From assembly GCA_032718475.1 (NCBI GenBank), contig JAUCBJ010007359.1, positions 1 through 64,000 on the forward strand: a DNA stretch of 64,000 nucleotides, written 5' to 3'. A model generated the notes under the pieces. The model was not told the origin of the DNA and searched no databases. It was given only the letters and a program-made list of their open reading frames with translations. Both the position numbers and the translations under genes were made by a program. Within the stretch, counting starts at the first letter, position 1. Every line of letters starts with the position of its first letter. Source of the DNA: Nemertoderma westbladi. Taxonomy: Eukaryota > Animalia > Xenacoelomorpha. Shown here in pieces: positions 2,244 to 64,000 of the stretch.

Positions 2244-2459
2244 GAAACCTTCTAGTTCACAAGCTTCTATACAGTAAATCAATCAATGGACAATATCAAA
2301 CATAAATAAATTAATTAATTAACTTAACAAAACTTTACATAAGTGAGCATTCTCTCAAACAAACAGACTGATGCCGCTTTAGTTGCAGCTACATACAATA
2401 ATAAACATAAGGCTTTATGTTGTAATAGATAAATAATAAAATGGGAAAAGGTTTAAACT

Positions 2460-10640: not shown

Positions 10641-11519
10641 TTGTTGTAATCTATCTTGTTGGAAATAAACGCATGAACTAAGGAAAAACCGTTTAACCTT
10701 AGAAATATTTCTCAAGTGATAAAAGAAGTCTGCACAACTTTACTGATTTGTTTTTCGAGAGAAAGATGTTCGTGTCTCTAGCAAATGGACAGAAATTGAG
10801 GAGTTAATCTCAAGTTCTTATTTATTAATGTAATAAATAGTAATTCTTATCTGTGAATTTGATATTCACCTGAGAAATATAGCCGGACCACATGTTGTTG
10901 ATAAGTCGGTATAGCATTCCTAATGCATATGCTGCGCGGGGCATGCCAAATTGTGGATTTCATGGTGGCGGCAAAATATTTTTTCTTAAGCCAGCAGCAG
11001 AGCATCTCAATGTGCAACTTCAATGCAGAAGGTGGATTATAGCAGTAGTAGTACAGTATGCTTACTGGTGCTCATCAAATGAGGTAATTGTTAAATTTTT
11101 GTATAGAAGAATGCTACAAAGCTGACATGCTTTAATTAAATACATAAAGATTTCGTTGCAAAAATTATTGATAAATAAATATAATTACTGTATCTTACAG
11201 TACTAAAAAAAATGTGTAGCGCCTCGCGAATTACGAATCTAAATCCCGGGACATGGTGTAATTGCAGTGTGGGAACGTGTTTGGAAATATTCTAAAATCC
11301 ATAAAACTGGGATGACATATGCATTAGACTGACTATATACTGTATAATATATATGTAACCTAACTTTTGGAAATTTTACATTTTTATAGGCCTACTGCAT
11401 TTAGGCCTACAAATATTAAACTTTTGATAATTTTTATATGACTTTTGCAAAAGGAATTGGTGCTACACGTTACATTCGCTTCCATATCATGGGCGATATG
11501 ATTAAAGATTACGATGTTG

Positions 11520-12737
11520 TTACATTATTCTCGAATCAGTAAGAATTTTATCGGCTCTATCGTAACCCAACAATCCAAGATCAACGAACTCGTTACACCG
11601 ATCGAACATGTAGTCTGCCATACCGAGGCTGACACTGTCCATCCAAGACGCGGCTATCGCCGATGATGATTTCGAAACTGTAGTGTTTCGATCTTCTCGA
11701 CCCCAAAACAGTTTATGGTACGTCTTGTAATAAGTGTTGTTCTGGATAAATTTATCGACATCTTCGTGATTTCTGACGCTAGTAAATTTAACGAGATCTT
11801 CATAAACACCTTCAGTATCAGCTGATAGGTCTTCGTATCTTAGAAACATAACTCCTTTTCGTAGATCCTCATCACCCAAGTAGTCACTTATCATATAGTT
11901 TAACCAAGAACAATATTGATCAAGCATTCTACCAACAATTTCAATCGGCGCTTCAGAGATTTCCATACTCCCCTTAAGTGTCAGAGAATTGATTCGCCCG
12001 ATGGGATGGCGAACTAGAACAATTAATCTCATCCCCCCATCCAACGTGAGATTTTTAAACATTTTTATAGAACCAGCATCGGGTATTTTGGCAACTGTTG
12101 ATTTGTGGTCAAGACAAACTTGGTTCACATTATCGCACTCTTCACTGCACTTGGCAATATTCGTACAGGAAAGTTGAAACGCTTTCATGATGCAGCCGTT
12201 CTCTCTGAATGTTATTCTGGGCCAATCGCAATTAAAGATTGCATCCAACATTGGAGAAACACTTTCTTCGGACATATTACCTATGTGTCCATGGAAGTTA
12301 TTACAATTTAGATCATCCTTCTCACAAAGATTATAATATTGCAGAATATTTAAACTCGATTCCTTAAAAAGTTGTTCGTTTATTTTATGAATTGGTTCGA
12401 ATAGATACATCACGTTGGGATTTTGGTTTAATAATTCCCCTAAAAACGATGACCCCGACCGAATTTGGGTTATGATGGCCACATTATGTCTCGTTGTATC
12501 GGTTGTATCGTATTCACGGTTGCGTGTGGACTTGAAATCCGTTTCTGGAAAGTAATTGTTGTGTTCCGGTAAGTCATATTGGGGTTCTGTGATGTAATAT
12601 TGGGGTTCTGTGATGTAATATTGGGGTTCTGAGTTATTATATTTTGGTACATCCCGCATCCAAAGATACAAACCCGCCACTGAACACAAGGCGATACAAA
12701 TAATTATTTGGGTCTGGGCTTGCGATAAACGAAACAT
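11520..12737 (-). CDS. Golgi carbohydrate sulfotransferase (CHST1-7 / Gal-GlcNAc-6-O-sulfotransferase-like), single exon, type II membrane protein
   Basis: 405-aa ORF with an N-terminal TM helix (IIICIALCSVAGLYLW), 5'-PSB motif TQIRSGSSFLGELLNQNPNVMYLFEP, 3'-PB-like LVRHPIGRINS and RYEDL. Confidence 0.9.
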   Translation of the reverse strand: MFRLSQAQTQIIICIALCSVAGLYLWMRDVPKYNNSEPQYYITEPQYYITEPQYDLPEHNNYFPETDFKSTRNREYDTTDTTRHNVAIITQIRSGSSFLGELLNQNPNVMYLFEPIHKINEQLFKESSLNILQYYNLCEKDDLNCNNFHGHIGNMSEESVSPMLDAIFNCDWPRITFRENGCIMKAFQLSCTNIAKCSEECDNVNQVCLDHKSTVAKIPDAGSIKMFKNLTLDGGMRLIVLVRHPIGRINSLTLKGSMEISEAPIEIVGRMLDQYCSWLNYMISDYLGDEDLRKGVMFLRYEDLSADTEGVYEDLVKFTSVRNHEDVDKFIQNNTYYKTYHKLFWGREDRNTTVSKSSSAIAASWMDSVSLGMADYMFDRCNEFVDLGLLGYDRADKILTDSRIM

Positions 12738-12820
12738 TACGTTACATATAGTCCTATCTAGTTTCGCGTACCAGTATTTCCCTACTGTATCACAATCTTT
12801 CGAATAAACAGTATCTTGGG

Positions 12821-12828
12821 CTTTTATA
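12821..12828 (-). promoter_or_regulatory. Candidate TATA box of the sulfotransferase gene
   Basis: TATAAAAG on the minus strand ~85 bp upstream of the ATG. The context is AT-rich, so this is weak. Confidence 0.3.
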
Positions 12829-14817
12829 ATAAGGGATTATCATAAAACTAAGATACTATTAATAGTTTTGCGTCAGTTATACATGACACGTGTTTTATGA
12901 ACAGATGTGTGGACCTTAAATAATGCATCTATCACCATCAACAACTGTAGTCAAAAAGAAAACTGACCAATTATTTCAAACAATTACTCCTTCCTGTACG
13001 CAGTAGGAAGTCCAATCTTTCCCATAGGCCGCATTACACAGCTGCTATGGAATATATCTTTACATGGATTGAGTGTTGAAACCCGACTGGAGAAATATCC
13101 TAATATAATAAATAGTAATAATACTAATAATAAATATCCTAATAATACTACCACCTTCCGAAAAAAAAATTAAAGCTATTTATTTTATTTACTTACCATA
13201 AAGAAACATTTTTTATTTTTGTGTATGAAGGATAAAAAGAGTGAAGTTTGTTTTAATAAATTTAAATTACCCTACTTTTTGTTCCTGCCAAGGTATTTAT
13301 TTATTTGTGCTTATTGTCTATCATACCTAAGTATATAGTAGTACTACTATAATCGTCCTGCTGCATTGAAGCTGCACATTGAGAGACTATGCTGAGTTGG
13401 CTTAACAAAAATATTTTTGCCACCTCTATGCAATCAATAATTGGCATGTCCCACTGCAGCGAGCATTAAGAATGCTAATGCTAATGCTAATGCTAATGGT
13501 CCAAAATCGCAAATGTCGAGATTTATTAAATTGGATTTTTGGCGACTGACACTTGATCATACACCATCGTAGAACGGTAGAGGATAAACATAAGTTTGTT
13601 AAATAAGAGCCACCATTACGATCTGCTAAAGTGCACTTGTACAAATAAGTGTGCAAAAGTGCAAATTTTTTAATAAGGTTAAATTATATAGTATTGGGTT
13701 CGTTTCTTTGCAGATACTTTATTTTCATATTAATATGTTGTTTGAACCTTACTGAGCGCATTAGGGGATATGCGTACAAATAACCGGCCCTTATGAGGCT
13801 TCGATTGGGTAAATTAATAAAACATAAGGTTGTAATAATTCTAAAAAACCAGTGTGATATTAAATGCACTTTAAACAATAAATAGAGATCAAATAACAAA
13901 TGGACCACACAATTAAAAATTCGCACAATTTTGTACTTATTATATCGCTTCAAATTAATTCAACAGTGGATATTTGTGGGAAGGGGGAAGTTACAGTGTG
14001 CATTCGGGGGAAGTTTGGTGAACTGCATTTATGCAGTGAATCCAAACTCCCCCCTTTGAGATATCATATACTGTACTTTAAGACATGCTAGGTTGTCAGG
14101 GAAATATTTGTTACTGTCACACTTTGCTTCCATTTATCCTATCCTTTATTATTACCCCAGTCAGAAAAGATATAATAATCAGTAAAAACCAAACTAAACT
14201 GTCTTTCATTCAAACAAATTTCTAACTAAAGACGGGTGAATGACCATGACCATGGAAATAATTTTAAATAAATTGTATATCAACTATTTGGGGAGGCTTC
14301 CAAGTTAAACCCGAAAACAATTATTTCGTTACATATATATAGTAAATAACGTTGTATGTTCTTCTTCCTCTCATAATAAAATATCTCTGAAATATCTCTG
14401 ATCGCTGTGCCCTGTAACATTTCACAACCAAAATGTTTCAGTGTGAAAAGTGTAGGCCTACCACACCCCGCCCAAACAGCCGCAAACGCATAGCCAACAA
14501 ATTTAACAATAGGTTACATACATGTTGGGTTCATGACGAGATGAGGGAAAATTGATCGCATAATATAAACTAAAAATTGAGAGTCGGGCTGGCTCTCCTC
14601 CACTTTCTTACCCAATGGTTGTTGAAATGAATTGTTGTATCATTGTATGAAAAATGAATGAATTGTTGTTGAAATAATCTAATATTGGGGCGGCTTTCTC
14701 TCATTTGTTGCATTTAAGGCATGTTACTAAAAATACACAAGATTGTTACTGTCACATGTCATTTTACATCTAATAGTATACGTTTATTTTTATCCTTAGT
14801 ATTGGAGTGAAATTTCT

Positions 14818-15632
14818 TCATAGGTAGCATTGCCTTACATGGTACACATGTAGGTAGCATTGCCTTACATGGTACACATGTAGGTAGCATTGCCTTACAT
14901 GGTACACATGTAGGTAGCATTGCCTTACATGGTACACATGTAGGTAGCATTGCCTTACATGGTACACATGTAGGTGCATTGCCTTACATGGTACACATGT
15001 AGGTAGCATTGCCTTACATGGTACACATGTAGGTAGCATTGCCTTACATGGTACACATGTAGGTAGCATTGCCTTACATGGTACACATGTAGGTAGCATT
15101 GCCTTACACTGTACACATGTAGGTAGCATTGCCTTACATGGTACACATGTAGGTAGCATTGCCTTACATGGTACACATGTAGGTAGCATTGCCTTACATG
15201 GTACACATGTAGGTAGCATTGCCTTACATGGTACACATGTAGGTAGCATTGCCTTACATGGTACACATGTAGGTAGCATTGCCTTACATGGTACACATGT
15301 AGGTAGCATTGCCTTACATGGTACACATGTAGGTAGCATTGCCTTACATGGTACACATGTAGGTTGCATTGCCTTACATGGTACACGTGTAGGTAGCATT
15401 GCCTTACATGGTACACATGTAGGTTGCATTGCCTTACATGGTACACATGTAGGTAGCATTGCCTTACATGGTACACATGTAGGTAGCATTGCCTTACATG
15501 GTACACATGTAGGTAGCATTGCCTTACATGGTACACATGTAGGTTGCATTGCCTTACATGGTACACATGTAGGTTGCATTGCCTTACATGGTACACATGT
15601 AGGTAGCATTGCCTTACATGGTACACATGTAG
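14818..15632. repeat. 30-bp minisatellite, about 27 near-identical copies
   Basis: Unit TAGGTAGCATTGCCTTACATGGTACACATG with few variants and no spacers. Confidence 0.97.
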
Positions 15633-16062: not shown

Positions 16063-17614
16063 CCCTATTAAACCCGGGGGGGGGTCAATATGACCCCTCC
16101 CGTGGTTTTTTTATTATAATTCTGAAACAAACGCAGTTGGAAATCTGAAATTTTATGACTTTTCCTAAAAATCTATTGTCTTCCTAGTAGTGAAAACCGT
16201 TTTCAAAAATATTGGGTACTTTTCGAGTTATAGCACCATTTTTTAACCCTACTTTTGGCACTTTTTTTGAGACGTTTTTTGAAAATTACATTTCATTAAA
16301 TATGAATTGTAACATCTCTAATTTTGATTTACACCGGTTTTTTGGTGTTAGAAATTTGATGGAATTCATATCAATTGATTTAGAAATTTCAAACTTGTAT
16401 TTTTCGGCGGGTACCAAATTTTGGTGCCAGCACCAAATTTTGAAATAAGTCAATTTTGTAAATTGAACGTTTGAAACTTGTTTTTTACGCAATTGGGGTT
16501 TTTTGGGTTTCTGGATTCGATGAAATATATACGAGTTGCACCAAGCGTAGCAAACTTGCATTTTTCGGTACTGTGTGCAAATTTTGGTGCTAGCACGAAA
16601 TTTTGAAAATCCATTCAATAGATAAAAATGCTTGTGACAATTTATTTCTTGCGTTTTAGAGGTTTATGGCTGTTCTGAATTCAATGGAAAATATAATTAT
16701 CGAACTAGACATCTCAAACTTGTATTTTTCGGATGTGGGTGCAAAATGTGGTGCTAGCACCAAATTTTGAAAACCATCAAATATATCAATTGATTGTGTC
16801 ACCTTGTTTCTTGCGTTATACGGGTTTGTGATGGTTCTGAATTCAATGGAATCAGTAAAAATTTCATAAGAGTTCTCAAACTTGTATTTTTCGCCGGTGG
16901 GTGAAAATTGTTGTGCCAGCACCAAATTTTGGAAAATATGCAAATTGATAAGTAGATAGTATCACCTTGTTTCTTGCGTTATACGGGTTTATGAGGGTCC
17001 TGAATCCGAAGGAATCAATAAAAACAGCACTGGACATCGCAAACTTGTACTTTTTGGTGATGGGTACGAAATTTGGTGCTAGCACCAAAATTTGCCAAAT
17101 TACGCCGAAAAATACAAGTAGCAATGATCTGGCATATTAGAAATGTATTCCATTAGAATCAGCGCCCTCGAAAACCTGAAAATGTGAATTTATAGCATCG
17201 TATAAGTGAATTAAAAATTTTGTGTTCTAACTGAAAAGTGCTGGTTACTTGTTTTTTTCATTTTTTTCCTACGCAGAGAGGACCCTACAGCCATTTATAG
17301 TAATCATATCATTTTTTAATATTTTCCAATGTATTTTGCACCCCAGAAAACCTGTATTGAAAAATAATTAGCCGAAAATGTAACTTTCAAATTTGGTGAA
17401 AATTGTGCACTACTTGTAATTTTGGTGCTGCAATATAGCCACCCCAGTACATTTTTTCGAAAATTTTTTTTTTCGGTCGGATCCAGACAAGTGATACCTA
17501 CGTACAAACAAAAAATCAGACGTTTTCGTAAATATTTGTAGATTTTAGAGGGTGGGGTCAATATGACCCCCTCCCGGTATTTGTACAACATTTTATAGCC
17601 CGGTACTAATAGGG
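16063..17614 (-). mobile_element. piggyBac-type MITE, copy 2 (inverted relative to copy 1)
   Basis: TTAA at 16059-16062 and 17615-17618. Near-identical reverse complement of 5892-7470. Confidence 0.9.
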
Positions 17615-27782: not shown

Positions 27783-30700
27783 TGTAGAGATATCACATTA
27801 GAGACTGGGAGACCATAGAACATGGCTCGCCCCATTATATACTGGATAGGTATATATAGTAGAGTAGTGGATATAGTTCCATACATACTTACTTATTATT
27901 ATGCCTGTCAGTAGTCTGTCAGTATATAGCATGCAGTAGTCATGCAGATATAGTTATCTGAGAGTATCAGAATATTAGATATGAAGTACCACAGTCTGAC
28001 AGTGTTATGCTCACCAGTCTGCCAGTACGTTCATATCCCCATATGGCGCAGTATTGTAGTCAGTCAGGAACTCTAACAGTGCTCCTTAAGTGAAGAGTTA
28101 AGCTTTCGTGCGGACTCGGATCTTTGGCGGACAGCCTACAAATAAAAGGAAGGGATGGACGAGAAAAACACGACAGCCGCCGGATCGGAGGTGACTGAGT
28201 TCGCGGGCGGGTCGGACGACACCAACCCCACTGTGGATCTCCTCACCGACCTTCGATCGGAAATGGCACATCGAGAGGCTGCAGCAGACGCGCGCCTCGA
28301 TCGCCTTACGCAGCTGCTGGATCGGCAGCGGGCAGCGGCGGACGCACAGATTGCTCAACTCCTCGGGGCGCTTCAGGTGCAACAGCAGCAGGGCGCTGCG
28401 CAGCCCCAGGTTGGTGTGGCGGCCGCCCCCGTTCCCGGCGCGAACCCCGCTCGACGCCGGGTATTCGACATTATGGGCGTTGAGAAAATTGATGGCGATG
28501 TAGAGTTTACATCATTCCGACGGTGGCGCGAGGCGTGGCGGGTGCATGCGTACCGACAACAGGCCTCCACGTTTCCACGCATCGAACAGGTTTACGCGTT
28601 GGTGTCCGCACTCGGGCGGGACCTACAGCAAACAGTCACGGTCACTCTCGGTGTCGACATCGACGACGACGCGACAACAACCGACTCCATCATGGACGCC
28701 ATCCAGACTCATCTTCGTTCCAAACGATCGATCGCGATTGACGGAATTAAATTCCACGGGCGGAAACAAGGGCCAAACGAATCCTTCGACTCGTTTCGAA
28801 TAGCTCTAGAAGAACTTGCTGATGACGCAGAACTATGTGCACACTGCAGGGACAGGCAGATAGTGACACAGGTTCTGGTCGGAGTTCGGTCATCCGAAAC
28901 ACGAACCGAGCTCCTCAAGGTGTTACCCCAACCCACTCTGGCTGACTGCGTTCGGATTTGTCAGTCGAGGGAGGCGAGCGAACACAACGACGACGTGATC
29001 GGTAGCGGGAAATCCATCGCCAAGGTGACGTCGTCCTACAAACGCGGACGATCCGAGGACAGGCGACCGCCTGCACCGCGATCGGACAGCAAGGACTCAG
29101 CGTGCATGAGTTGCGGACGGGAACACGCTGCAGGGAAATCCAACTGTCCGGCGAAGAACGCGCGCTGCAATGCGTGCGGTAAAATGGGACATTTCCGCGC
29201 CGTATGTCGCTCTAAAGCGACCAGAAAACCAAAAGGTAAAGACCCTGCGACAGTCAATACAGTAACGGAAGGCGACGGAGTAAACTCGATTAACTTCGCG
29301 TGCAGGCTCCCACGCATCACCGTTAACATGTTCGGTCGGGACGATGACGAGATACAGGGGAAAATCCACAACGTCCTCCCGGATAGCGGCGCCGCGGCCA
29401 CCATGCTGAATCTGGACATATTCAGTCGTATGGGGGGCCGCGTACGGGACCTCACACCGTACCCATCCGCCGACCTACGCGCCGCGAATCAACTTCCCCT
29501 CGAGATAGTCGGACTTTTCCACGCGAGAGTGGATTACGCAGGGAACTCGACTGAATCCCTGGTCGCGATATCTCCGGAGGTGGAGGGATTGATACTATCA
29601 TACGAGGCGCTACGAGGACTCAACCTTCTCCACCCCAACTTCCCTCTACCCTTCGTGTCGGTGTCAGCCGTGACGTCATCGCTACCCCTCCCGAGCGTTC
29701 GGGATGGATTGATGAGCGAGTTTAAAGACGTGTTCGACGACGTCGAGGAGGAGCTCGGGACGATGAAGGGGGACCCGATGCGGGTCGAGTTGAAGGACGG
29801 CGCCACGCCATTTCACGCCAACGGCGCGCGACCGATTCCGTACGCACTACGCGACGAGGTGAGGGAGCACCTCGATGCCATGGAGCGACGGGACGTCATT
29901 GAGCGCGTCACCGAACCCACGGAATGGGCACACCCACTCACAGTCGCTCGTAAACCCAACGGGAAGCTTCGGGTTTGCGTGGACTTACGACATCTGAATG
30001 ACCAGATAAAGCGGCCATACTACCCCACACCCAGTGCACGGGTGGCGGTGACGGGGATCTCCACCACGGCGCAGTTCTTCTCCGTATTCGATGCTGCGGC
30101 CGGTTACTGGCAGGTTCCCCTCGAGCCAGCTTCACAACTCCTCACCACGTTCGTTACCCCATGGGGGAGATACAAATTTAAACGGAGCGTGATGGGTCTC
30201 ATCTCCAGCGGAGATGAATTCAACCGCCGCGGCGACGACGCGCTGCGCGGACTCCCCGGGATGGTTAAAGTCGTCGATGACATTCTCCTATATGATGACA
30301 ACCTCGATGATCACATCGCCAGTGTCCGGCGGTTCCTTCTCCGATGCCGCGAGGCAGGGATCGCCCTCAACCCCGATAAAACGCAGTTCGCCCAACGCGA
30401 AGTGAAATTCGCGGGCTACTATGTCGGGGCCGACGGGATCAGGGCGGACCCGGCCAAGGTCCGGGCCATTGCAAGTTTTCCTCGCCCAACCAACCTAACT
30501 GATCTAAGGAGCTTCGTAGGGTTGGCGGAACAACTCGCCCCATTCTCAACGGAGATCTCGACTACGATGTCCCCCCTTCGCCCCCTCCTGCGCGCGCACA
30601 GCCCATACGACTGGAACAGCGATCACGAAGCGGCGTTCGAGGCGACCAAAAAAGTCCTGGTTTCTCCTCCCATTCTAGCTCCATTCGAGCCGGGGCTCGA

Positions 30701-32815
30701 TACACAACTAGAAACTGACGCATCCCGGAAAAACGGCCTAGGTTACGTGCTGCTACAGCGACACGGTGACACCTGGAAACTCATCGAGTGCGGCTCAAGG
30801 TTTATCACAGAAACAGAGTCGCGATACGCAATGGTGGAACTAGAACTCCTCGCAGTCGTGTGGGCCGCACACAAATGCCGCCTATACCTTGTGGGACTTC
30901 CACACTTTACATTGGTGGTGGACCACCAACCCCTCGTGTCTATACTCGATAGACAAACGCTAGACGGGACCGACAACGCCAGGATCCAAAGACTGAAGTC
31001 TAAGATGAGCACATTCACGTTCACTACAACTTGGAAGAAGGGAAAGCTCCATCGAATCCCCGACGCGTTGTCCCGATCCCCAGCCGACGACCCAACCCCA
31101 GACGATTTGGTCGATGATGGGGACATGGCGTCCTATGTGTGCGCGGTGACCGAACAAACCGCCACCAATATCACCGAGGATAACGGACCGGCGGCGGAGC
31201 AACCCGACCTCCTCCTCCGATCGTTATCTACATCGGCTCGGAATGACTCTGACTATGTTGCGCTGCGGGAGGCCATCGAGTCAGGGTTCCCTGCGACGTC
31301 ACGCCAACAGACGGGAGTCCAACCCTACTGGTCCATTCGGGACGAATTATCAACCGATCGGGACCTGGTCCTCTACGGACACCGCATCGTCATCCCGCGG
31401 GCGAACCGGCGGGATACGTTGGCGCACCTCCACGCCGCACACCAGGGGGTTGAAAAGACCCTACGTCGGGCCCGCCAGACAGTCTACTGGCCGGGCATCA
31501 CTAACGATGTCCGGACGACCGTCTCCTCCTGCGAACCCTGCCTCACCCAACGGCCCAGCCTCGCTCGGGAACCCCTGCTGAGGGACCGCGAGGCCACACG
31601 GCCATTCCAGGAACTATCTGGAGATTTATTTTACCTCAATGGAAATAATTATCTCGCAGTCGCAGACAGATACTCCGGGTGGCCCGAGATCTACGGATAC
31701 ACCAGCCACCCCACCGCCGCATCCACCGCTGAACACGTACGGGACATATTCACACGGTTTGGTGTCCCCCTACGGTTTGGGTCGGATGGCGGCCCTCAAT
31801 TCGCCGGCGAGGCGTTTAAACATTTCTTACATACTTGGGGGGTCGAGCCCGTCACCTCCTCCCCAGAATACCCGCAAAGCAACGGCCACGCGGAGTCCAC
31901 CGTCAAGGCTCTCAAGGCGTTGCTCACAAAGACTGGGGGAAAACTGACTTCACCAGCGTTCCTGGAGGGCCTCCTGGAACTCCGTAACGCCCCTCGCGCA
32001 CACGGGAAGTCACCGTCCCAGATATTATTCGGCCACCCCACACGGTCTCGGGTGCCAACACACAGCCGCGCGTTCCAGATGGAACACCAGCAGGCTCGCA
32101 CGGAGCTCGACCGGGCAGTGCCCACGCTCCTCGAGTCGCAGACGGAGGGTTATAACACCCACGCGAAACCCCTCACACCTCTAGCTGTGGGCGACCCAGT
32201 GCGGGTCCAGAACCCATCCACGAAAAGGTGGGACCGCACCGGGACGATTGTGGAATCGGGCCTCAACCGGAAGTACACCCTACGGACTCCGTCTGGCCGA
32301 TGTCTAATTCGCAACCGTCGTCACCTACTCCGGGATACCTCCATAGACACCCCAGTGACCCAGGACACAGTTGCCGGGCCACCAGCCGGAAACGGCTCCA
32401 AGGGACGCAATGTACACTGGGCGGACCAGTTGGTACAACCCGCCTCCCAACGCCGCAAATACCCTACCCGCGCGAGGCGCCAGCCAAACCGCCTCTAAAA
32501 CTGCGAAACTGAAAGTTATTGATAGTTTATACTGTGGGTAGAAACTCGAAAGGGGGTGTAGAGATATCACATTAGAGACTGGGAGACCATAGAACATGGC
32601 TCGCCCCATTATATACTGGATAGGTATATATAGTAGAGTAGTGGATATAGTTCCATACATACTTACTTATTATTATGCCTGTCAGTAGTCTGTCAGTATA
32701 TAGCATGCAGTAGTCATGCAGATATAGTTATCTGAGAGTATCAGAATATTAGATATGAAGTACCACAGTCTGACAGTGTTATGCTCACCAGTCTGCCAGT
32801 ACGTTCATATCCCCA
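27783..32815 (+). mobile_element. Full-length Ty3/Gypsy LTR retrotransposon, Mag-like
   Basis: LTRs at 27783-28041 and 32557-32815 (TGTAG...CCCCA) look identical. PBS TGGCGCAGT (tRNA-Ser-like) at 28044. PPT GAAAGGGGG at 32548-32556. TSD (TA)CATAC. Confidence 0.96.
28155..32498 (+). CDS. Gag-Pol polyprotein (2 CCHC, protease, RT, RNase H, integrase)
   Basis: 1447-aa uninterrupted ORF: [69 protein letters not shown] and SNGHAE. Confidence 0.95.
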
Positions 32816-33524
32816 TACATACCGTATGGTCTGCAGAAAAACAATACAAAAACTAATGTCCCCAGATGTGCGCAAGGGACAGTATTTAGAACGGTGTGTT
32901 CTCGTTAATTTATTATATATTCTTAACGTCCATTGCAACTACATACCGTATGGTCTGCAGAAAAACAATACAAAAACTAATGTCCCCAGATATGCGCAAG
33001 GGACAGTATTTAGAATGGTGTGTTTTCGTCAATATATAAAAATATTTCTTAATTTCCATTGCAACTACATACCGTATGGTCTGCAGAAAAACAATACAAA
33101 AACTAATGTCCCCAGATGTGCGCAAGGGACAGTATTTAGAACGGTGTGTTTTCGTCAATATATAAAAATATTTCTTAATGTCCATTGCAACTACATACCG
33201 TATGGTCTGCAGAAAAACAATACAAAAACTAATGTCCCCAGATGTGCGCAAGGGACAGTATTTAGAACGGTGTGTTCTCGTTAATTTATTATATATTCTT
33301 AACGTCCATTGCAACTAACTATCTACATAAGTAGAACGTAGGGCATAATATAATACTCTCTGCAATGCAAAACCAATGTCCCCAGATGTGCGCAAGGGAC
33401 AGTATTTGGAACGGTGTGTTATCGTTAATTTATTATATATTCTTAACGTCCAGTGCAACTACCTACATAAGTAGAACGTAGGGCATATATAATACTCTCT
33501 GCAATGCAAAACCAATGTCCCCCC

Positions 33525-42410: not shown

Positions 42411-43329
42411 TCAGGTCAAATTTTCAAATTGTTATTTTATTAGTTAATCTAGAGCAGAATTTAATGAGGAGTTCAAATCTGAAAACCGCTTAGTGAGACC
42501 TCTTTCAGTTCTCGAGTTATCGTTGTTTTTCCGTATGTCAGTCTGTCCGTCAAATTGTATGAAAGACAGACGACCGACAGACAGACAGACAGACTAGATT
42601 CCACCAAACATTAAAACTGACATCAGAAATGAAATCAGCGACCCCGAAAACCCCCATATTGAAAATTTTAGATCCGTGGTGTGTATCCTTCGTGCCAGAA
42701 GTAATATTTCAACCAGAACATAGACATCCGATTTTGGCGGGAAGGTTTAAAATGCGAAGGGCATTTTCTCAGAATTAAAATCTGAAATATGAAAAATGCT
42801 ACTCCTCCGCTATTTTGTATCCAAATTTATCCATTTTTATGTCATTCGAATCAGATAGATGTGCTCTACAAATATTCTAGTATGGAATTTTGGAATAATA
42901 TATTTTTTAGTTATTTTGGTGCCACTTTTCGTAAAAAGGTCCTGTTTTGTTGCAAAAATGAGGGCAAAATTTATAAAAAATTAAATATAAAATTTTTTAA
43001 AATTTTTTTCAAAATTTGGTACTAGAATTATTTAATGTTATATATTTGAGAACACTTTAAATGCGAATCCGAAATTTTTCATTCAAGATTGGTAGACTAG
43101 TAGCAATTCAAATAAAAAAAGTTATTATATCGTTTGCCGCTAGGGGGCGTCTAGAAATTCATATTTTTACATGTAGGACTGATATTGACTTATATTGTAA
43201 CGAGTATGATACGTTTTTTCACAAACCGAAATATTATGCTTGTTCTATAGGCCGTATAAATTTGACATAAATGACCAGGCCCAAATTTCACAGCAATCAA
43301 AAATTTTAAATGCAACCGTTTCAGTAACC

Positions 43330-46300
43330 AACAGGCCTCATATTCCACTTGTCACCGCTGTGGATACAATAAATGCAGTCCTTCCAGTAACTGCTGATTT
43401 GGTCACAGCTGCCCTGGAACAATCTGGAATAAATTTACCCTACGATGGGTTATCCCCAGCCACAGCTCAATCAGCTGGTACTGTAGTAATAGGAGAACGT
43501 CCCAAAGGCCAGAACACCCCCGCTAAAGCCTTATCCTTTATTCATGCAGGTACAGGTGTGAACGCAAGCACAGATCAACCCGAAACTCAGTTAAATAGAG
43601 ATGTACATGGGTGGCTTAATTCGAATCACAATAACAGCCAGTCACAAATAAGTATACCCCTTGAGCCCAAATCTAAGGAATTCCAAAGGATACAAGGTGA
43701 GTTCGATACTGCAGTGGCACAAGGAACCATTGAAAATTATTCTTATCGAACTCTAAAGGGTTTAAGACGAGAAAATGAATTACAAAATGAAATTGTCCCT
43801 AATGATTCCGTCTCCAATGTAGGAAGTAGGTATCATAAACGAGCTACTTCAAAGGCATCATCCAAGGTGTCACGAGTCACCCAATCTGAAACTGGAAGGT
43901 CTAACATTATGGCTGCCCGCAGAGAAGCTGAGCTTCTATCTTTAAAAGCAGAGATGGGGAAGGAGGCAGAAGAGATGAAACTTCTTGAGCAAAGCAGACT
44001 CGATGCTCACCGCGCTGAGCACAAGCATCAAGAGCGAGCATTAAAGGTGAAAGTAAAGTTACAGGAAGCTAATGACAATGCAAAATTAGCCAGGGCCAGA
44101 TTAAAATTATTGGAACGGGATGCTGTATTAAGGGACTTCGCCCAAAATAAATCTGGGGAAAAAATTCAGGAAACAAAAAATTCGCGAATATCGATAGACC
44201 CTGATGTTCCATGTGCCAATGCAAGTATTTCTATTAGTGACAACATTAATGTGATACCGGTACCTGTTAGTAGTGTTAGTGTTAGTAGAGTGCAAATGGA
44301 GCGGAGTGCTGAAGTACCAAATGGACGTATGGGTGGAAGTGGAGTTGGTACACCTGTTCGTGCGACTGTTGAAGTGTGTAATGCAGCCAGTGGAAAAAGT
44401 AATGTACCGAAATTTATGTTAGTGGATAATGGTGTAGCAGGTACTAGTTACATTAGCCCTAGTTATCAACCCAAAAATGATCCTAATGTTTTAGATAAAA
44501 TTTCAAAATATCAGCCATCTAATGTTAATGAAAATGAATCAGTTCAGCTTGATAATGATGCTTCGGTGTCTATCGATGTTCATAATTGCCAAAATAAAGC
44601 CACTGCAGTAAACCGAACTTCACCTCACTCTGGGAATGTCAGTACATTCCCCGATACTGTAGGGAATTCCAAAGATCACTCTATAAAATTGACTGAGCAT
44701 GAGCTTGAACAGCCCAAAATGGATAACTTAGAGCCGAGATTACACATTCAAGCGAAAGGTGGGTCAGTGTCTTTGGGCCACACGCAGTCGACACCTGGCC
44801 TAAAAGTGAAATCGATGAGAGTGGCACGGTACCATACATCCTACTCAGATGCACCACAGCATAACTGTTTTGAATATGTTGATACTCCTGTAAAGCATTC
44901 AAACTTTATTGCATCTACAGCAAGGTCATTGAACCCAATTAAACGACCAGTAACTGGAAGGGCAGCCGAACTTGACACAATTATTGAAGAGAAACAAGAT
45001 GGCAATGACCAGGAATGTGCTGCATGCTTGCAAGGAGGGCCTCTTGCAGCAGTACACTACAACCCACGTGGCACCCCATATCATTTGCAAGCTGGCCCAA
45101 ATCTAATAGCCATTCCACACCCTGTACCAGTGTTTAAATCTCGTATCCAACCACCATTCCTACCTCGACCATACGGGAGCAATGGCATAAGAGCAACTCA
45201 GGAGCATTCCTTGGTAAAACCCCCTTTAGTGCCTACTCCCATTTATGTACCTGCAAAGCAGACTACAGAATTATCAACTGTGCTTAATCCTGCAGCCATC
45301 GTCAGCCCAGTGCTGTCTGAGCCAGAACCTATATATATTAGTTGCAATTCACAAAGACAGGTCACAAACGTTTACTCTCCCGACCAACAACAACCACAGA
45401 ATATGTTCGAACCCGATGATCACAAGCAGTCAGTTACCATGGCAACACAAACAGAATCTCATGGTAGGAAAGCGAGTGGAGAACAAGACAGAAATTACAA
45501 CAAAGTAATTATTTCCAGTCCTAGAAAGATAACCAAAGTAAGAGAACATGAGGTGGATACAGATATGCCTGACGAACCTGAACATTCAAGAAATATGTGA
45601 CAGTAGGGTAAGAGGTCGGCTAATTTCTAAGGCTGATACTATTCTAGCTCAGATTCTGGGTACACACAACGATTCGAACTCTAATTCAATCCTTGGCACT
45701 GGCACAGTTACAAATAATATAGGACAGTCAACAACTACAGAATCAGTTTGGAAAAATGTTGTTATGCGTTTAACATTGCCACCACAAATTCCAGAACCAT
45801 TCACTGGTAATCCTATTGAGTTTGTCAGCTTCATTCAAACCTTTTATGACAGAGTTCATGTCCATGACATTACAGACTCTGAAAGACTTAATTACCTGTT
45901 ACAATATACCCGTGGAACACCACATACTGCTATACGGAAGGTGAAAGGGCTGCAGTCAGGATATGCTAAAGCCTTGGAAATACTAAATGACCGTTATGGA
46001 AATTCATTACAAATAGTTGATAAGACAATATCCCAACTCGTTGATATCTCTCGTCTGGGTGATAATGATATCATTGGATTGAGAGAATTGGCTGATAACC
46101 TCACGCAAGCAACACAGTTATTGGAACAAATGGGACGGTCTAATGAAATGAATAGTGTAGAGCATATGAAAAGAATAATAAGTGTCTGCCCCACTCATGT
46201 GCAGTATAAATGGCAAAAACGTGTTCATGAATTAAAAATGATCCATAAGAGACAACCAACTTTCAATGATGTAGTACAGCATATTGAATGGTCAGCAGGA

Positions 46301-46740
46301 GTGTCCTGTAACTCAGTATTTAAAGTCAATAGAAAGGTTATCGGAGATTCCACATTATCATCTCAAGGATATGGCAAGGGCCAGAACAAGGATCGGGGAG
46401 GCAATAATAAAACAACATTTCGTCCACCAAATGATGGATCACAACACAATTCCTTTGAGAATTTGCCAGGGAGGCTGGGATTTCCACAACATCCCCGTGC
46501 AACCATGTTACTCACTGATACCCATTACGGAAATACCAATCAACAACCCTATGGAGTAAATCAAGGCTACACCCATATGTCAGAAAATGGACCATATCCT
46601 TTGCATCATGTTGCACCACCACCTTTATCAAATCCAGACTATCGACATCAGCCACTGACGGCACGATTTCAATCTCCAATGCAACTACAACAAACCTATC
46701 GTAAACCTGTATTAAACCCAAATAAACAGCAACAACCCAA
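43330..46740 (+). pseudogene. BEL/Pao gag fragment (long N-terminal region plus DUF1759-type core), frameshifted and truncated
   Basis: ORF 43240-45600 has PNDSVSNV, a Ser-rich stretch and a coiled coil. ORF 45548-46786 has FTGNPIEFVSFIQTF...ERLNYLLQYTRG...ALEILNDRYGN. No LTR or pol seen. Confidence 0.85.
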
Positions 46741-46781
46741 TAAGGGGGGGGGGGGGGTACCCCCCCCCCCCCCCCCCTTAA

Positions 46782-47059
46782 ACTAGACAATTATATCATA
46801 GGGATATTACGTCCATAACTATTGCACAGGTAATATTGTAAACAAGCAGAGCATGACCCATTAAAAAACGCAAAACAAAACACAGCACATAATATATTGT
46901 ATTGTAATATAATATTAGTAAAAGATAAAATATTTAAAAAATAATCAAGAAATCGAAGGATAAAAAAAAATATGCACAGCCTGTAATAATGTAGGCAGAT
47001 TATATTATAAAAAATCAATTGTTTCACGTATCCGACTCGACTGAGAAGTTGCCACCGCG
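46782..47059 (-). mobile_element. LINE-like 3' UTR fragment whose (TAAA)n tail lies at 40005-40025
   Basis: 7-bp TSD ACACAAT at 39998-40004 and 47060-47066. The fragment is split at a TTAA by the 40026-46777 block. Confidence 0.6.
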
Positions 47060-56269: not shown

Positions 56270-56615
56270 TGCTTATTATAAATGGCAGTTTAAGTCCTCT
56301 ATGTAGGAAACAATTGAAAAAAAACAAGTAACCAGATCTTTTCAGTTTGACCACAGAAATTTTTATTGACTCATACGATGCTATTCATTCACATTTATAG
56401 GTTTTCTGGGGCTTCGATTCTAATTGATTACATTTCTAATGCTCCAGATCATTGCTACTCGTATTTTTTGGTGTAATATGGCGAATTTTGGTGCTGCATG
56501 AAATTTCGCACCGATGACCAAAAAATACAAGAGTGAGATACCAGTGCTGATTTTATTTATTCCATCGGATTCAGAATCCTTAACAACCTGTATAACGCAA
56601 GAAACAAGATGATAC
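56270..56615 (+). mobile_element. piggyBac-type MITE fragment (copy 4)
   Basis: Collinear with ~6225-6570 and cut at 56615 by a BEL LTR. Confidence 0.75.
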
Positions 56616-58839
56616 TTTTTCGCGCTTTTAGACCTTTAGCAGTTTAACCTGCCAATTTTAGTTGTCCTCTTGTTTATAAATCGACTTTAGCCTTTTACCA
56701 ATTACCTGGTGTACTGAAGTTACATCAGCCGAAGCCAGTCCGTGCGCGGCGTATGACCCACGGTGTGGGAGACTGGATTCGGATTCCTTGAGAATTATTG
56801 CAGTGTAGACCTACTGTATTATTCGATTGATCGCTATTATATAATCTCTGACAACTATATTTACTTTCGGGGAAATATTAACAGTTCCTTTAGGACGTGG
56901 CGGTTTAAGTATAAAAATAGAGTTATGACTTATTCTAATCACAACTAGATGGCCACAGAGTTTCGTAAATAGTGCATTCTTTATGAGATGCTTTATTAAC
57001 CTTCACACTACTTCACACTACTTTACACTACTTCGCACTAATTTGCCGACCGTCACTGAATTTGATCATATATAAGGAGGATTGCAACTGACACACGTAA
57101 GGATTATGAAATAGCATTTAATTCACACAAAACCACTATAATTTAAGTCGCAGTTGCTACCGGTAGACCCTATTCCTCTTACCTCAGTAATCAATAAGAT
57201 TGAGGGGTTTATGATTATTTATCGGTATTCTCCAAATATAACATCAATATCCATCTATTCCTCTTGGTTCTAATTCCTTCCCGTCGCGTAGTTGAATCAT
57301 TTTAGGGCTATTTTAGAGTATTCTGCGCATTGCGTAAAAATGAATTGTTATGTCCGCAAAAGCTTTAACACCGCTCCCAGAAAATGGGATTTAAGTCTAT
57401 AAAATATAAAAAATCACAGTTTCTAAAATACAAAAATACTCTAAACTATTAGTCCTTCTTTCGTGAACAGCGTTTACAAAGTTTTTTGAGGCTAGTAAGA
57501 GTCCTTTTCTCTTTGGGGCGAGCCACTTTACTAGGAGGGCTATAACTCCTGGGTGAGGGGTGCAATACAATTGCATCGGAAGGTTTCGGATTACGGTCAG
57601 TGTATCCGCTGGTCGAGGTACCCGGTTGATCGATATCAACCTCAGTGGAACGAGGTCAAACAACCTTTAGAGCGCGTTTCAGGACTTTTACTGGTCCGTG
57701 TCGGGTCGTTTGCACGAGAGTGGTAGGTTGACCGTGAGTAGTGAGAAATTTCCTTGGTTTGATGGTTCTTTCCAACTCGCGTTCACTGGCTCTATATTCA
57801 TATGGTCGTCTATGAACTTCTTGTAGCTCTGGATGCGAGTTTATGAACAAGTCACCATATTCCGGATCTTGATGGATGAAGTTGATCAAGTTATAGGAAT
57901 TCAGGTTGTTAGGATTAATATTCCTAAGGTACTTGCGAACAAATTTAGTTGAAATATTCACGCCAACACGCTTCATCAGCTCGTAGCTAGGAGTGTGAGA
58001 TTTTTGCTCGACGGAAGCAAAGAGATAGGGGTGAAATGCATAGACTCCTTCATAAGCACGTCCAGGATAGTATCGATGACGTGATTCGCAATGGAGATCC
58101 GCGTTAGCTTCCCAAGCTCTGATATAACGCAGGGCAACCATTTCATCTATGCTTTCTAGATCTCGGTTGAAAGGGCAATCGAAACTTGCGTGTCCTTTAA
58201 ACTGACAATGATGACGTTGAGTCATAAGTTGAGGACAGACTGCGAAGATGTGTAGATTATTAAGTCTACAATACGCACAATAAATCTCCATAGCAGGTTG
58301 ATCTTTAAAGTAGGAGCAGGGTACGCTGGAGTCCACCGGGGTAAAGTGATCTCGTGATGCGCATAATCGGCAACGTTTCCTAGAAACATAATTGGCATAC
58401 CGATAATCATATGCTGTGAGACATTGTGGACCTTGATACCATTCCAGCACATAATCATTGTCGTTGCTCCTGGGTGCTGTGGGTTGAATCTCCTCGGACT
58501 CCAAGCAAATTGGTTCGTCTTCCAATTGCATAGCTGAGGTAGGTGTAGCTGTTTCTTCAAGCGAACCCACTGTTTGTACTTCTACAATAGAATAACCCGT
58601 GGGAATTCAGGGTCTTTGTATGACAGATGAATGTAAGTTCTATATACAAATGTCCTTAAAAATAGTGAATCCAGCGCTGTCCAACTTCTCAGCAGCTGAG
58701 TCTCTTAAGCTGAGCTTGGTTAAAGCGCAGTCTTTGAACTGACTGTCCACATTGTGGAACGGAGTCAGAAAGCGCCTAAAGCATTCGAATCGTAGGAATT
58801 GATTGTATTCCTAATATGTCTTCCATTGATGATATAGGG
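56616..58839 (-). mobile_element. 3' part of a BEL/Pao element: 3' LTR 56616-57370, PPT and internal extra ORF
   Basis: The minus strand reads GGGAGCGG|TGTTAAAGCTTTTGCGG at 57378-57355. The LTR is homologous (inverted) to 58840-60092. Confidence 0.8.
57656..58570 (-). CDS. Uncharacterised Cys/His zinc-knuckle protein in the env position of a BEL-type element
   Basis: 304-aa frame with CRLCASRDH..C, CAYCRLNNLHIFAVC and HHCQFKGHASFDC. Probably 5'-degenerate. Confidence 0.6.
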   Translation of the reverse strand: MGSLEETATPTSAMQLEDEPICLESEEIQPTAPRSNDNDYVLEWYQGPQCLTAYDYRYANYVSRKRCRLCASRDHFTPVDSSVPCSYFKDQPAMEIYCAYCRLNNLHIFAVCPQLMTQRHHCQFKGHASFDCPFNRDLESIDEMVALRYIRAWEANADLHCESRHRYYPGRAYEGVYAFHPYLFASVEQKSHTPSYELMKRVGVNISTKFVRKYLRNINPNNLNSYNLINFIHQDPEYGDLFINSHPELQEVHRRPYEYRASERELERTIKPRKFLTTHGQPTTLVQTTRHGPVKVLKRALKVV

Positions 58840-60092
58840 TGTAAAAGCTTTTGCGGATATAACAGGTCATTTTTCTCCGCAATATATACTGTGTAGGTGT
58901 TTTAGCGGACATAACAAGCCATTTTCTCCGCAATGTACCGTGAAGGTGTTTTAGCGGACATAATAAGCCATTTTCTGCCGCAATGCGCCTAATACTCTAA
59001 AAGACTGGGACTCAGATGACGAAATCTGCCAGCTGATTTACTGTAAACGTGGAACATCTCTTTGTTCAGCTCGCTCAACTCAGCCAATCAGAGCGATTTT
59101 CATTTTTATCTTGTACAGAGGCCTACGGGAAATCGCGCAATGCATTACGGTCTTTGTTTACCTTTCTGAGCGAGAACAACTGCTTGGAAATTCTTCTGTA
59201 CTTCTGTGTTGGAAGTTTCAGACTTTGACCTAAACATCAGAAACATCAGATGGCTTTGATTACAAGAACGTAAAACTATTAACTGAATCATTGCTGAATC
59301 ATACTTCATATCTGAATCACTGAAACAACGCGGCACTACGCAACGCGATTCAACTACCGCATCACACCACAATTCATGCATTGCTGCACATGGAACACTG
59401 CATAAGTAACACATACTGACTGTTCACCGCATTATTTGATTCTGTTATTAATTGGTGTTATGTTGGTATATATTGCTGATATATTTGGAGAATACCAATG
59501 AATAATCATAAAACCCCAATCTTCTTGATTACTAAAGGTTAGAGGAACAGGTTTACCGGTAGCAACTGCGACTTACATTATAGTGGTTTTTGTGTGAATT
59601 GAATGCTATTTCATAATCCCTACATGTGTCAGTTGCGATCCTCCTTATATATGATCAAATTCAGTGATGGTCGGCAAATCAGTGCGCAGGATTGTGAACT
59701 AGTGTGAAGTCGTGTGAAGTAGTGTGAAGGTTAATAAAGCATCTCCTAAAGAATGCACTTTTTACGAAACTCAGTAGCCATCCAGTTGTGATTAGTATAA
59801 GTCATAACTCTGTTTTATACTTAAAGTGCCACTTCCTAAAGGAACTGTTAATATTTCCCCGAAAGTAAATATATTGTCAGAGATTATATATTAACGATCA
59901 ATCGAATAATACAGTAGGTCTACACTGCAATCATTATCAAAGCATCCGAATTCAGTCTCCCTTAACTGTGGGTGAATGGTTGCGCACAGGCTGGCTTTGG
60001 CTGATGTAACTTCAGTACATTAAATAATTCATATACAAAAAAGACAATTAAAATTGGCAGGTTAAACTGCTAAAGGTCTAAAAGCGCAAACA
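58840..60092 (+). mobile_element. 5' LTR (~1.25 kb) of a plus-strand BEL/Pao element
   Basis: TGTAAAAG...CAAACA termini. Three ~50-bp tandem U3 repeats at 58840-59003, CCAAT near 59084, TATATA at 59646 and AATAAA at 59733. Followed by gag. Confidence 0.8.
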
Positions 60093-60259
60093 TTAATAGT
60101 TTTAAACTCTTGATTGCACGTAGGCAATAAATATTTTGTCTATTGTTCTGGTAAGAACAATAATAGATTTTTAGATTCTTTATTGCACCGTAGGCAACAA
60201 AGTCGAAGGTACCGGTCGAACGGTAAGCTGTAGGCCTAACTGCCCAACTACCTGTAGAG

Positions 60260-63200
60260 TTGACACCCGAGATCGGAGCAAGGATGACAGAAGCGGTTTC
60301 TCCAGATCCACTTCTCATTCTTCCTGAAGCCGTACTCACTAGAGTATTGATTGCGGTGGAGGAACACCAAATTGATTGGGCGAGAAGTAAGCAATCGACC
60401 AAGGACAGTTATGCGGGATACACAATGGAGGAACTGAAGTCTATTGTCGAGACGCAATGGAACTTCCCCGGACCCGGACTCCCGTTTAACTTATCTGAAG
60501 CTGCCTGGGAGGACTTATACAGGATGGGAGTGGTAAAGGACACTAGAGATATCCAGCTGTATGGAAGAGGTCGGCAGCAGGATATGTACAGGGATTCTTC
60601 AGCTCTTTGGAGCGATTAGAGGAACAACTGTTTCAACAACCCCAAGGACCTCAAGAGCAGGGAGAGCTGCTTTATCAAGTTCGAGAACGAATATTAAGGA
60701 TCAGACTAATCCTTTCGGCCTTTGAGGAAGCCTCGAAGAGAAGCCAAGACACGTCGTTGCAAGTTGCCATAAAGACTTGGTTCCAACGGGTGAGTCTTAA
60801 AGTCCAAGGAACGACCCAATGGAAAATTCAGCTAACTGAGCGCGCGACCCATGGAGAATTAACAGACGCTACCTTTTCTCAGGTGGAAAGCGAAGCGACA
60901 TCAGAGAAACCTCAGAAGAAGGATGCCATCGACATCTATCTGTCGGACTATCAACGATTTATAGGTGACAAAGAGTTAAGGAGACGGCTAGCTGGACTTC
61001 ACCCTAATAGTGAGGGAGCCAAATTTGTGCTAGACTCATTAGATGCGGAAAGGTTAGCAGCGGATCGAGCTAAATTTGATGAAAGAATCCGCATCGTTAG
61101 GGTCCAAGAAGAGCAGCTAAAGAAAAGGCAGATAGAAGACAGAAAGGCAGCAGCATCAGCGGCGGTAGAAGCTGGAAAAAAGCGGCAGCGGCGGCGGCAG
61201 AAGTTGAAAGAAAAGCGGCAGCTGCATCGGCAGAAGTGGAAAGAACAGCGGCAGCTGCAGCGGCAGAAGCGGAAAGAAAAGCGGCAGAAGCGGAAAGAAA
61301 AGCGGCAGAGGCAGTGGCAGAAGCGGAACGGAGGGCATCTGAAGAGACAGCCCAACTAGAGTTGGAAAATCTTCAAGAGAAGCAAGATTACTTAAATAAA
61401 CAGATAACAGCTAGTCAGATGCAGATGATAAGTCGATCTACTCCCAAGAGACAGGGATTTACATCATCTGATGAAGGCAATACAACAGATCCTGAAGGCG
61501 GAGGAAATAGATCTCGTTCCAACAGACGTAGAAGAATGCCCCACCGTCAGAAATTGCCTAATTTGCCCCCAGCTGTGAGAAGGCAACTAGCTAGTGTAGA
61601 CTTAGGTAGTGCAGAGCACACAGACCAAATTATTAGAGTAGAAAGACTCCCTACTATAGTAGATGAGCATGAAATAATTAGGCCTGTTCTCGAAGCCACC
61701 CCCTATGTGATAGAGACCCCTGTACTTCCAGAACCTAACTCTAAATTCCCTTTGCACAGTACTAAACTACCTGTGCCCAGTAGAATAGCCCCTGAATCTG
61801 TCCCAGTCCTGGACGCCGAGCGAGACATCAATGATTTGTCGCCCGTCGTCCCTCGTCTACCCGCTACTATGTTGGCGGCTCCCGCTTCGGCGGTAGAGTG
61901 GGTGGATGAGCAACAGCGGGGGATGGATCTCCTGCTCGGACAATTGGAGGAAAATCGATTACGTTCCTCCCAGCACGTCCGAGAAATGGAAGGGACTGTT
62001 CAGCAGTTAAAGGGAACAGTAAGAGAGGGTAGGTTAGAACTGCAAGAAGTGCAGCAGAGTATCGCCTTAGAACGCGATAAATTAGTAAATATACAAAGTG
62101 GTATACCACCACCCCCTGTAACAATGTGTCAACCTGTTAGGTCTGAAGTATTTCACGCGCAAGGTGTGGAGCCTACACGCATCTATACTGCTAGTGAAGT
62201 AGAAACTCCTATAGTAAACCCTATTAAGGATAATTATAAACCTGTTGATAATGATATTCCATATAGAACTGATCATAATCCGAGAAATTTATATACCGAT
62301 AATTCGATATTAAATAATACGATGGCCCAAGAAAGTTTTACGCGTCAAATGGCAAGAACCGAAGCCCATCAAGCGGTAAAGGTGGGAGAGATCATCAAGT
62401 TTAACGGAGATGAGATGAAATGGTTACCTTTTAATGAATATTATAAAGATAACATACAGAACTCTGTACTATCTAACGGAGAGAAACTTAGATTCCTCAT
62501 CAAGTGCTTGGAAGGATCTCCCAAGTTAATGGCGTTAAAGTTTATTGGACATCCAGATGGATTAAGACAAGTTTGGGATACACTAAACATCAGGTATGGT
62601 AATAGGACTAACATAGCTAGGTATTTGTATGCGAAATTAATGGCGCCCCGAAAGTTTCTTAGCAGCGGGATTATAGAGTTTTCCGACGAGATTCAGGAGA
62701 TCTGTAGATAACTAGATATCATACATGTGTGGTGCATTATCTTGCTGCACACAGAATTTGAAAGAACCCGCACGAGTCAGGTAAGTGAGCCCGAACTACA
62801 TGTCCAATTCAGTGATGTGAACGACACTGACCACAGCTCTGAGATGGAAGGATTCTACACCGACAAATTCTCCGATGAAAACGAATCCTGTTATATGACA
62901 AACACCACGGTGTATCGAGCGCTTACGTATGAGACTGAAACCGATAATGAAGTCCAATCGACTATTCCGGACACACAACCAACTTGGAAAGCGCCAACTT
63001 CCAACATCGGAATCCGGGAATTCCCAGTGGTGCAGCTGAGAGTCCACGGGAAAGGTAAGAGTTTTATAGTAAATGCCCTCCTTGACTCCGGCAGCACAGG
63101 AACATTCATCGACAAAGAACTAGCCGAAGACATCTTTGCTGGACAACCCAAGTTCCGAACTAAGTTGAACCCCTTTCAGGAATTATGCAGGTTTGGAAAT

Positions 63201-64000
63201 CCACAGTAGCTACAGACTACTATGTAGGAGCATTGTCCACTCCCCAGGACGAACTAGGAGAACACAGCATAAGGTCAGTAAAAATGGTCGCGATAAAGAA
63301 CTTTGCTACCAGCCAAGTGGAACCTTACAACTGGGATGAAGACGATTTTACCCAGCAGCATGATATCCCTAGATTCAACACCGACTACCCAGGAGTACAG
63401 ATACTCATTGGCCAAAATGCGCATGAGGCGCTAGAGACATTAGAAAAACGGCCTGCTCGACCGCAACCATTACAAACATATGCGGGAAGAACGAGAGTAG
63501 GTTGGTACTTCACTGGACCTTCCCGTAGAACACTCATGGAAAGATTACCTAACGACCAAGTACATCAGGTGAGTGATGGGAAGAAGAAATCAGTGAGGGA
63601 GAGAACACAACTGAGGGAACACCATACTCCTCAGATAATGACGATATTAACTCTAATGTAGATCAATGGAGACATTGCCCTGGGACGATTAATCCAGCCG
63701 ACATCGCTTCCAAAGGAGCAACTCCTCAAGAACTGATAGATACTCCAGACTGGTTAGGTGGACCCGACTTCCTAAGTAAAGAAGAGGATGAATGGTCTCC
63801 TCATCTCACCACGGCTGAGATTAGACAAGCCAAGGGAGTGGAGAAAGTCAAACCTAAAACCTGGACGAGTAAATCAAAGTTATTTAAACCCGTGATTGAT
63901 CTGTCTGTACTACACATTTCAGGGGACGACGCTGTGGATCAAAACTCCCCCGCCACAAATAAATCTGTTGTGGAAATCAGAGAAAGAGACTGGAAATCTG
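60260..64000 (+). pseudogene. BEL/Pao gag-pol, frameshifted and internally deleted
   Basis: Coiled-coil gag N-terminus; DUF1759-type FNGDEMKWLPF...EKLRFLIKCLEG...RYGN; protease NALLDSGSTGTFI; RNase H end WRHCPGTINPADIASKG...WLGGPDFL at 63667-63774. RT core not seen. Confidence 0.9.

Follow-up and report, generated by a model that had tools for sequence, protein, structure and literature searches.

A BEL/Pao retrotransposon of Nemertoderma westbladi may prime its reverse transcription with RNA of its own LTR instead of a tRNA. In the window, by which we mean the whole stretch of 64,000 nucleotides analysed, the 12 nt that follow the 5′ LTR of this element (element B) lack the TGG of a tRNA primer-binding site (PBS) and are exactly complementary to a segment of the same LTR. 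From the sequence comparisons set out below, we give Tf1-like self-priming from that segment (59271-59282) a probability of roughly 0.55, and we hold a self-derived primer of any kind to be somewhat more probable still.

Identity and limits of element B

Judged by its sequence features, element B represents a degenerate BEL/Pao copy on the plus strand, of which the window contains the 5′ end. Its 5′ LTR (58840-60092, 1253 bp, TG...CA) opens with three tandem units of about 50 bp each (58853-59000), whose copy number differs among contigs, where the differences are seen as joints. Behind the LTR lie the primer-binding position (60093-60104); a leader (60105-60230) with predicted stem-loops, whose predicted fold of −30.8 kcal/mol carries no shuffle control; gag in three frames (60227-62711), with DUF1759 near its end (PF03564, E 2.9e-8); an aspartic protease region in two frames (62712-63661), assigned from a weak profile match below the cut-off (E 0.004); and a C-terminal piece of the BEL RNase H (63577-63999), identified by protein matches. 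The RNase H end at 63652-63852 was matched by 120 of 121 fetched proteins, nearly all of which carry PF05380. Because the RT and most of the RNase H are missing ahead of this piece and gag-pol is spread over several frames, element B is a non-functional copy. The DUF1759 of its Gag and its BEL-type protease and RNase H sequence bear out the BEL/Pao identity given in the original prediction, as do the TG...CA LTR and a polypurine tract before the 3′ LTR, the tract being that of a related copy (copy A) and the 3′ LTR of element B itself lying beyond the window. A tree built on a 53-column fragment gave element B no subclade placement, the RT being absent and the window stopping at 64000. A search with the gag protein returned no match, and a search of representative proteins returned one unrelated protein. 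The protein that matches the RNase H fragment best and the closest relative of that protein (P0001 and P0003) are both long polyproteins of BEL type that lack an RT Pfam match and are possibly members of a divergent-RT lineage.

The start of element B stands back to back with the truncated interior of copy A. The LTR of copy A (LTR A, 56617-57370, minus strand) is 85% identical to the LTR of element B (LTR B) over 645 nt, and the LTR B start at 58840 aligns with the LTR A start at 57370. LTR A follows a purine tract, which marks it as the 3′ LTR of another copy. We rejected an assignment of this inverted LTR pair to Penelope or DIRS, given the BEL domains and the purine tract of copy A. A 316-aa frame on the minus strand (57656-58606), located between the junction and copy A's 3′ LTR, contains several CCHC-like motifs; it had no Pfam match, and its zinc-knuckle leads in the Atlas all stayed below 0.9. 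Contigs of public runs cover the start of this frame, which is therefore a part of the family that is repeated.

Two of the last five LTR bases differ between A and B, so that LTR A alone is insufficient to fix the LTR end. For the LTR end and for variation across the family we aligned Logan contigs of five public runs (coded X1 and so on) to the window. The loose ends behind 60092 proved heterogeneous (21 contigs with an agreement of 0.39 in X1, 17 with 0.44 in X2 and 3 with 0.6 in X4), as is expected for 3′ or solo LTRs with unrelated flanks, and they fix the LTR end at 60092, the position at which it had originally been placed.

Absence of a TGG primer site

Directly after ...CAAACA (60092) the sequence reads TTAATAGTTTTA (60093-60104), in agreement with the original prediction. 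TGG is absent from 60093-60149 in the window sequence, and none of the eight substitution rows listed across 60048-60137 creates one. The claim that no TGG-type PBS directly follows the 5′ LTR therefore holds both for the sequence and for the contig variants listed. Nor did a comparison with the tRNA 3′ ends of a published table reveal the complementarity to a tRNA that is expected of BEL/Pao: none of these ends fits the TGG at 60056, and one fits the TGG at 60150 in 10 of 12 positions. A deeper PBS in the leader, at this latter TGG, was rejected, since it would stand 57 nt downstream of the LTR end as fixed above.

The 64-kb window holds no tRNA gene, and an Rfam search of 56400-60600 gave three weak matches below the gathering score and no ribozyme. 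As a positive control we used a Gypsy-type element at 27783-32817, which has identical 261-bp LTRs, a 1450-aa ORF encoding RT, RNase H and integrase, and a TGG PBS, the first nine letters of which fit a tRNA-Ser end listed in supplement 1 of PMC13524379. Another BEL gag fragment, unrelated to the first (DUF1759, E 1.3e-13), is found at 43210-46786, with no LTR evident upstream and other repeats there.

A 12-nt complement within the LTR

The exact reverse complement of 60093-60104 is present in the same LTR at 59271-59282, as originally reported, and occurs only once in the 64-kb window. We refer to 59263-59282 (plus strand) as site 1, the candidate self-primer: 59271-59282 pairs with the PBS at 12 of 12 positions, and past a 3×3 loop the helix resumes in register with five more pairs (59263-59267 with 60108-60112). 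This is the best duplex in the LTR, at −10.0 kcal/mol compared with −9.0 kcal/mol for a weaker complement (site 2), and it reaches −15.3 kcal/mol with the extension. Among dinucleotide shuffles, an anchored perfect complement of at least 12 nt arose in 15 of 20,000, or in 40 of 20,000 when offsets of 0-5 were admitted, and the 17 of 20 in-register pairs of site 1 and its extension were reached in 7 of 30,000. Judged against the shuffles, the match at 59271-59282 exceeds what chance would give. Real positions of the window, which is rich in inverted repeats, give higher frequencies: 0.51% of 62,650 for the anchored complement of at least 12 nt and 0.9% for the 17 of 20. An empirical window-wide chance of 0.5-0.9% is non-negligible for a scan over many LTRs.

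When the whole RNA is folded, the dominant structure is a local hairpin (60093-60101 with 60105-60115), and neither long-range helix is favoured; the predicted pairing of site 1 reaches 0.38 only for an RNA starting at 59271 and lies at 0.00-0.23 for starts at 59150-59250. DNA pattern scans returned 54 metagenome matches and one viral match, none of them similar outside the pattern.

How does the complement fare across the family? Position 60093 differs from the window in 64% (X1) and 61% (X2) of depth, 60097 in 50% and 37%, and 60100 in 36% and 44%, contig depth being distinct from copy number and liable to take in flanks aligned by chance; 60094-60096 and 60098-60099 show no substitution row. 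Among the loose-end rows listed (19 of 56), other subfamilies depart from the window sequence after 60096-60101. Among the rows listed, no TGG site stands at the end of the LTR in this family, and the PBS varies between copies. In element B all three variable positions pair with site 1, despite varying in 36-64% of depth in X1 and X2, and each of the three common variants would break one site 1 pair unless site 1 co-varies. The site 1 region recurs in other copies, with joints at 59280-59290 where 20-28 letters match on one side and divergence sets in directly behind. Among the variant rows listed (40 of 551) none falls at 59271-59282, in contigs that are short and do not link this region to the PBS. 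LTR A does not contain the stretch that holds site 1 (a gap against 59003-59306 of B) and offers no Watson-Crick complement to the PBS longer than 6 nt.

Other BEL/Pao elements

A profile scan of GTDB with a BEL alignment yielded 22 loci, and further loci were taken from the same genomes. The 22 loci (L055-L076) stand in bacterial MAGs, one of which (G001) has 13 PF05380 matches, and encode BEL/Pao polyproteins; they are most likely animal DNA that was binned there. Protein scans of viral contigs revealed no BEL locus. In nine unrelated BEL elements from MAG contigs, either a second LTR or a related copy defines the 5′ LTR end, and eight of these (L055, L065, L066, L067, L071, L077, L079 and L108) carry TGG within a few bases of it. 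Loci with no independently defined 5′ LTR end (L056-L064, L068-L070, L072-L076 and L080-L091) were excluded from this count; an unanchored complement scan of 14 loci, namely 13 excluded ones and L079, produced chance-type matches only. L055 was considered as a further element without TGG and rejected, for about 50 nt of its LTR end are duplicated in tandem (L055:9271-9520) and a TGG PBS follows.

The ninth element, L078, is without TGG. It lies on the minus strand in eukaryote-like DNA of a MAG (G001:C233) and has two LTR copies, 16295-17050 and 2262-3031; nested within it, at 10302-15021, is a copia-like LTR element. The first 11 nt of its PBS are exactly complementary to the junction that joining a GTAAGT donor to a TTTTCAG acceptor of its own LTR would form, and this is so in both LTR copies. 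The donor stands at LTR position 215, the acceptor at 602 and AATAAA at 639; the junction lies 32 nt ahead of AATAAA. Such a junction complement was obtained in none of 5,000 shuffles with strict sites and in 17 of 5,000 with any GT/AG. L078 was picked without selection for complementarity and counts as an independent case in favour of an element-derived primer; it is a single element, distant from the element B family and of a different, putatively spliced, design.

A model for self-priming and its alternatives

How might site 1 act as a primer? In the model that we propose, transcription would start upstream of 59271 and end after the AATAAA at 59733. The CCAAT box is a promoter element, and the sequence offers one at 59084-59088 (plus strand) as a candidate upstream element of a TATA-less promoter. 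The 5′ RNA would fold onto the PBS through 12 bp, the 3×3 loop and 5 bp, and a cut after 59282, probably made by the RNase H of an intact family member, would free a 3′-OH. Strong-stop DNA would then be synthesised from 60092 back to 59283, and strand transfer would rely on roughly 470 nt of R overlap, which is workable because site 1 lies 5′ of the AATAAA shared by both LTRs, provided that transcription begins upstream of site 1. Finally, plus-strand synthesis would copy the primer, so that any change in the primer would be carried over into the PBS; re-copying of this kind would explain how a variable PBS still matches, in element B, its own LTR at every position. What stands of the original self-priming reading is the BEL/Pao identity, the LTR end, the missing TGG and a site 1 match beyond chance, while the priming itself we infer.

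The position of the promoter bears directly on this model. A TATA-like motif (59646), an Inr-like motif (59679) and AATAAA (59733), together spanning 59646-59738 on the plus strand and recognised as motif matches only, are common to both LTRs at textbook spacing, which upholds the original caveat that site 1 lies upstream of a TATA/Inr-like signal. If TATA/Inr is the promoter, site 1 would fall in U3 and be missing from the 5′ RNA, and neither site 1 nor site 2 could act as in Tf1. The main alternative builds on this arrangement: TATA/Inr (59646-59684) would be the promoter, the match of an AT-rich 12-mer would be due to chance, and the primer would be some host RNA that lacks a CCA end, for instance a tRNA half produced by a cut in the anticodon stem, or a different small RNA. 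This account, which we regard as possible but rather unlikely, draws on the conservation of TATA, Inr and AATAAA in both LTRs, the lack of site 1 in LTR A, the share of A or T among the PBS letters (10 of 12) and the empirical chance of 0.5-0.9% for the site 1 match. With the 60097 variant, the first seven PBS letters would presumably also fit the anticodon loop of tRNA-Asn, which we count in its favour. Half-tRNA priming is known in Ty1/copia, according to the available part of PMC6317226. What speaks against a host RNA is that the complement begins exactly at the LTR end and continues in register. Moreover, a host primer should keep the PBS constant, yet the variation at 60093, 60097 and 60100 amounts to 36-64% of depth, and copies part from one another after 60098-60101.

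Alternatively, the primer might be derived from the element but made by splicing within the LTR, with a junction that is no longer clean in this old copy. The design is the one seen in L078, and a strong donor of LTR A (GAG|GTAAGA, 57182, minus strand), which differs in copy B, sits roughly where the L078 donor does within its LTR; both LTRs also have a donor-like site in common (59865/56864), and the first seven letters of the PBS are steadier than the variable rest, as expected of a two-exon primer. Against this, the GT-AG junctions of LTR B or A give at most 7 Watson-Crick pairs to the PBS, none of them with strict sites, so that neither LTR contains a junction complement of at least 11 nt, and an unspliced 12-nt match is already present. 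We consider a spliced primer in element B improbable. Least probable of all, to the point that we give it very little weight, is priming from site 2 (59841-59856, plus strand), which had been put forward as possibly the functional site: it does pair across the LTR/PBS junction with three G-U pairs and one mismatch (checked by eye), is identical in LTR A (56873-56888), is the sole match there to the variant-tolerant motif and would gain a G-C in place of a G-U pair from the 60097 variant, but its 11 nt with G-U pairs are no better than chance, being reached in 10% (A) and 11% (B) of shuffles, the region around it is 85% conserved anyway, pairs are lost with the frequent variants at 60093 and 60100, loose ends before 59874 reveal a subfamily with an altered inner base, and it lies 3′ of the shared AATAAA (59733), where by the standard scheme a cut would leave no R overlap.

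Self-priming from site 1 thus retains our preference for element B. A broader proposal, to which we assign even odds, is that a whole BEL/Pao branch dropped tRNA priming in favour of its own LTR RNA, with a spliced-intron primer in L078, a contiguous primer in the element B family and a PBS re-copied in each cycle. Element B is a middling example and L078 the cleaner case.

Comparison with known systems

What are the implications of self-priming in this superfamily? If it is real, BEL/Pao would be the third LTR superfamily with self-priming, after Tf1, in which it was shown, and some copia lineages, for which it was predicted. tRNA-fragment defence acts at the PBS, and self-priming elements would be freed both from it and from the tRNA supply. 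Self-priming would also explain BEL elements that are overlooked by PBS-based annotation tools, and the spliced form of L078 would couple the onset of reverse transcription to splicing by the host.

A literature search, conducted outside Repbase, GyDB, closed-access papers and most supplements, found no paper reporting self-priming in BEL/Pao. The main texts of PMC554778 and PMC3118150 make no statement on the PBS, and the available parts of PMC3601003, PMC3587641, PMC3286476 and PMC13524379 contain nothing on BEL self-priming. According to the ICTV, replication of BEL/Pao elements is tRNA-primed and poorly understood, and the PBS of Belpaoviridae comprises 18 nt for tRNA-Arg or tRNA-Gly (PMC8742986); a tRNA-Tyr PBS is given for Achilles in the available part of PMC4580426. 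Element B resembles Belpaoviridae and Achilles in its LTR, its gag with DUF1759, its protease, its BEL-type RNase H end and the purine tract before the 3′ LTR, and differs from them in that its family is without a TGG site at the LTR end.

Self-priming was established in Tf1, where the RNA's first 11 bases pair with the PBS and cleavage by RNase H was shown (PMC7175516, available part); the same mechanism was proposed for Tj1 of S. japonicus (PMC4600332, available part) and predicted for Tcn1 and for the plant Ty1/copia TAR lineage, Houba and Osr-1 (PMC6317226, available part). The original description of element B as an independent priming system is too strong in view of these last predictions. 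With TAR, Houba and Osr-1, as portrayed in that same part of PMC6317226, element B shares a self-priming reading drawn from LTR/PBS complementarity outside Ty3/gypsy, although it belongs to another superfamily and its host to another kingdom. Like Tf1 and Tf2 of S. pombe, Tj1 and the Tf1/sushi and Tcn1 groups of Ty3/gypsy, it has no tRNA PBS and carries 11-12 nt after the LTR that are complementary to an LTR segment (available parts of PMC7175516, PMC4600332 and PMC6317226). The Tf1-type arrangement, in which some 11 nt immediately behind the LTR are complementary to part of that element's LTR, is found in element B, whose complement agrees with that of Tf1 in length and position, as far as the available part of PMC7175516 describes it. 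Unlike the Tf1 group, element B is a BEL/Pao element, its site 1 lies 810 nt from the PBS, and the arrangement is read here from the sequence. Its domains are those of BEL and not the chromovirus Gag-Pol of Ty3/gypsy that marks Tf1/sushi; with moderate probability, element B works like Tf1 without belonging to the Tf1/sushi group.
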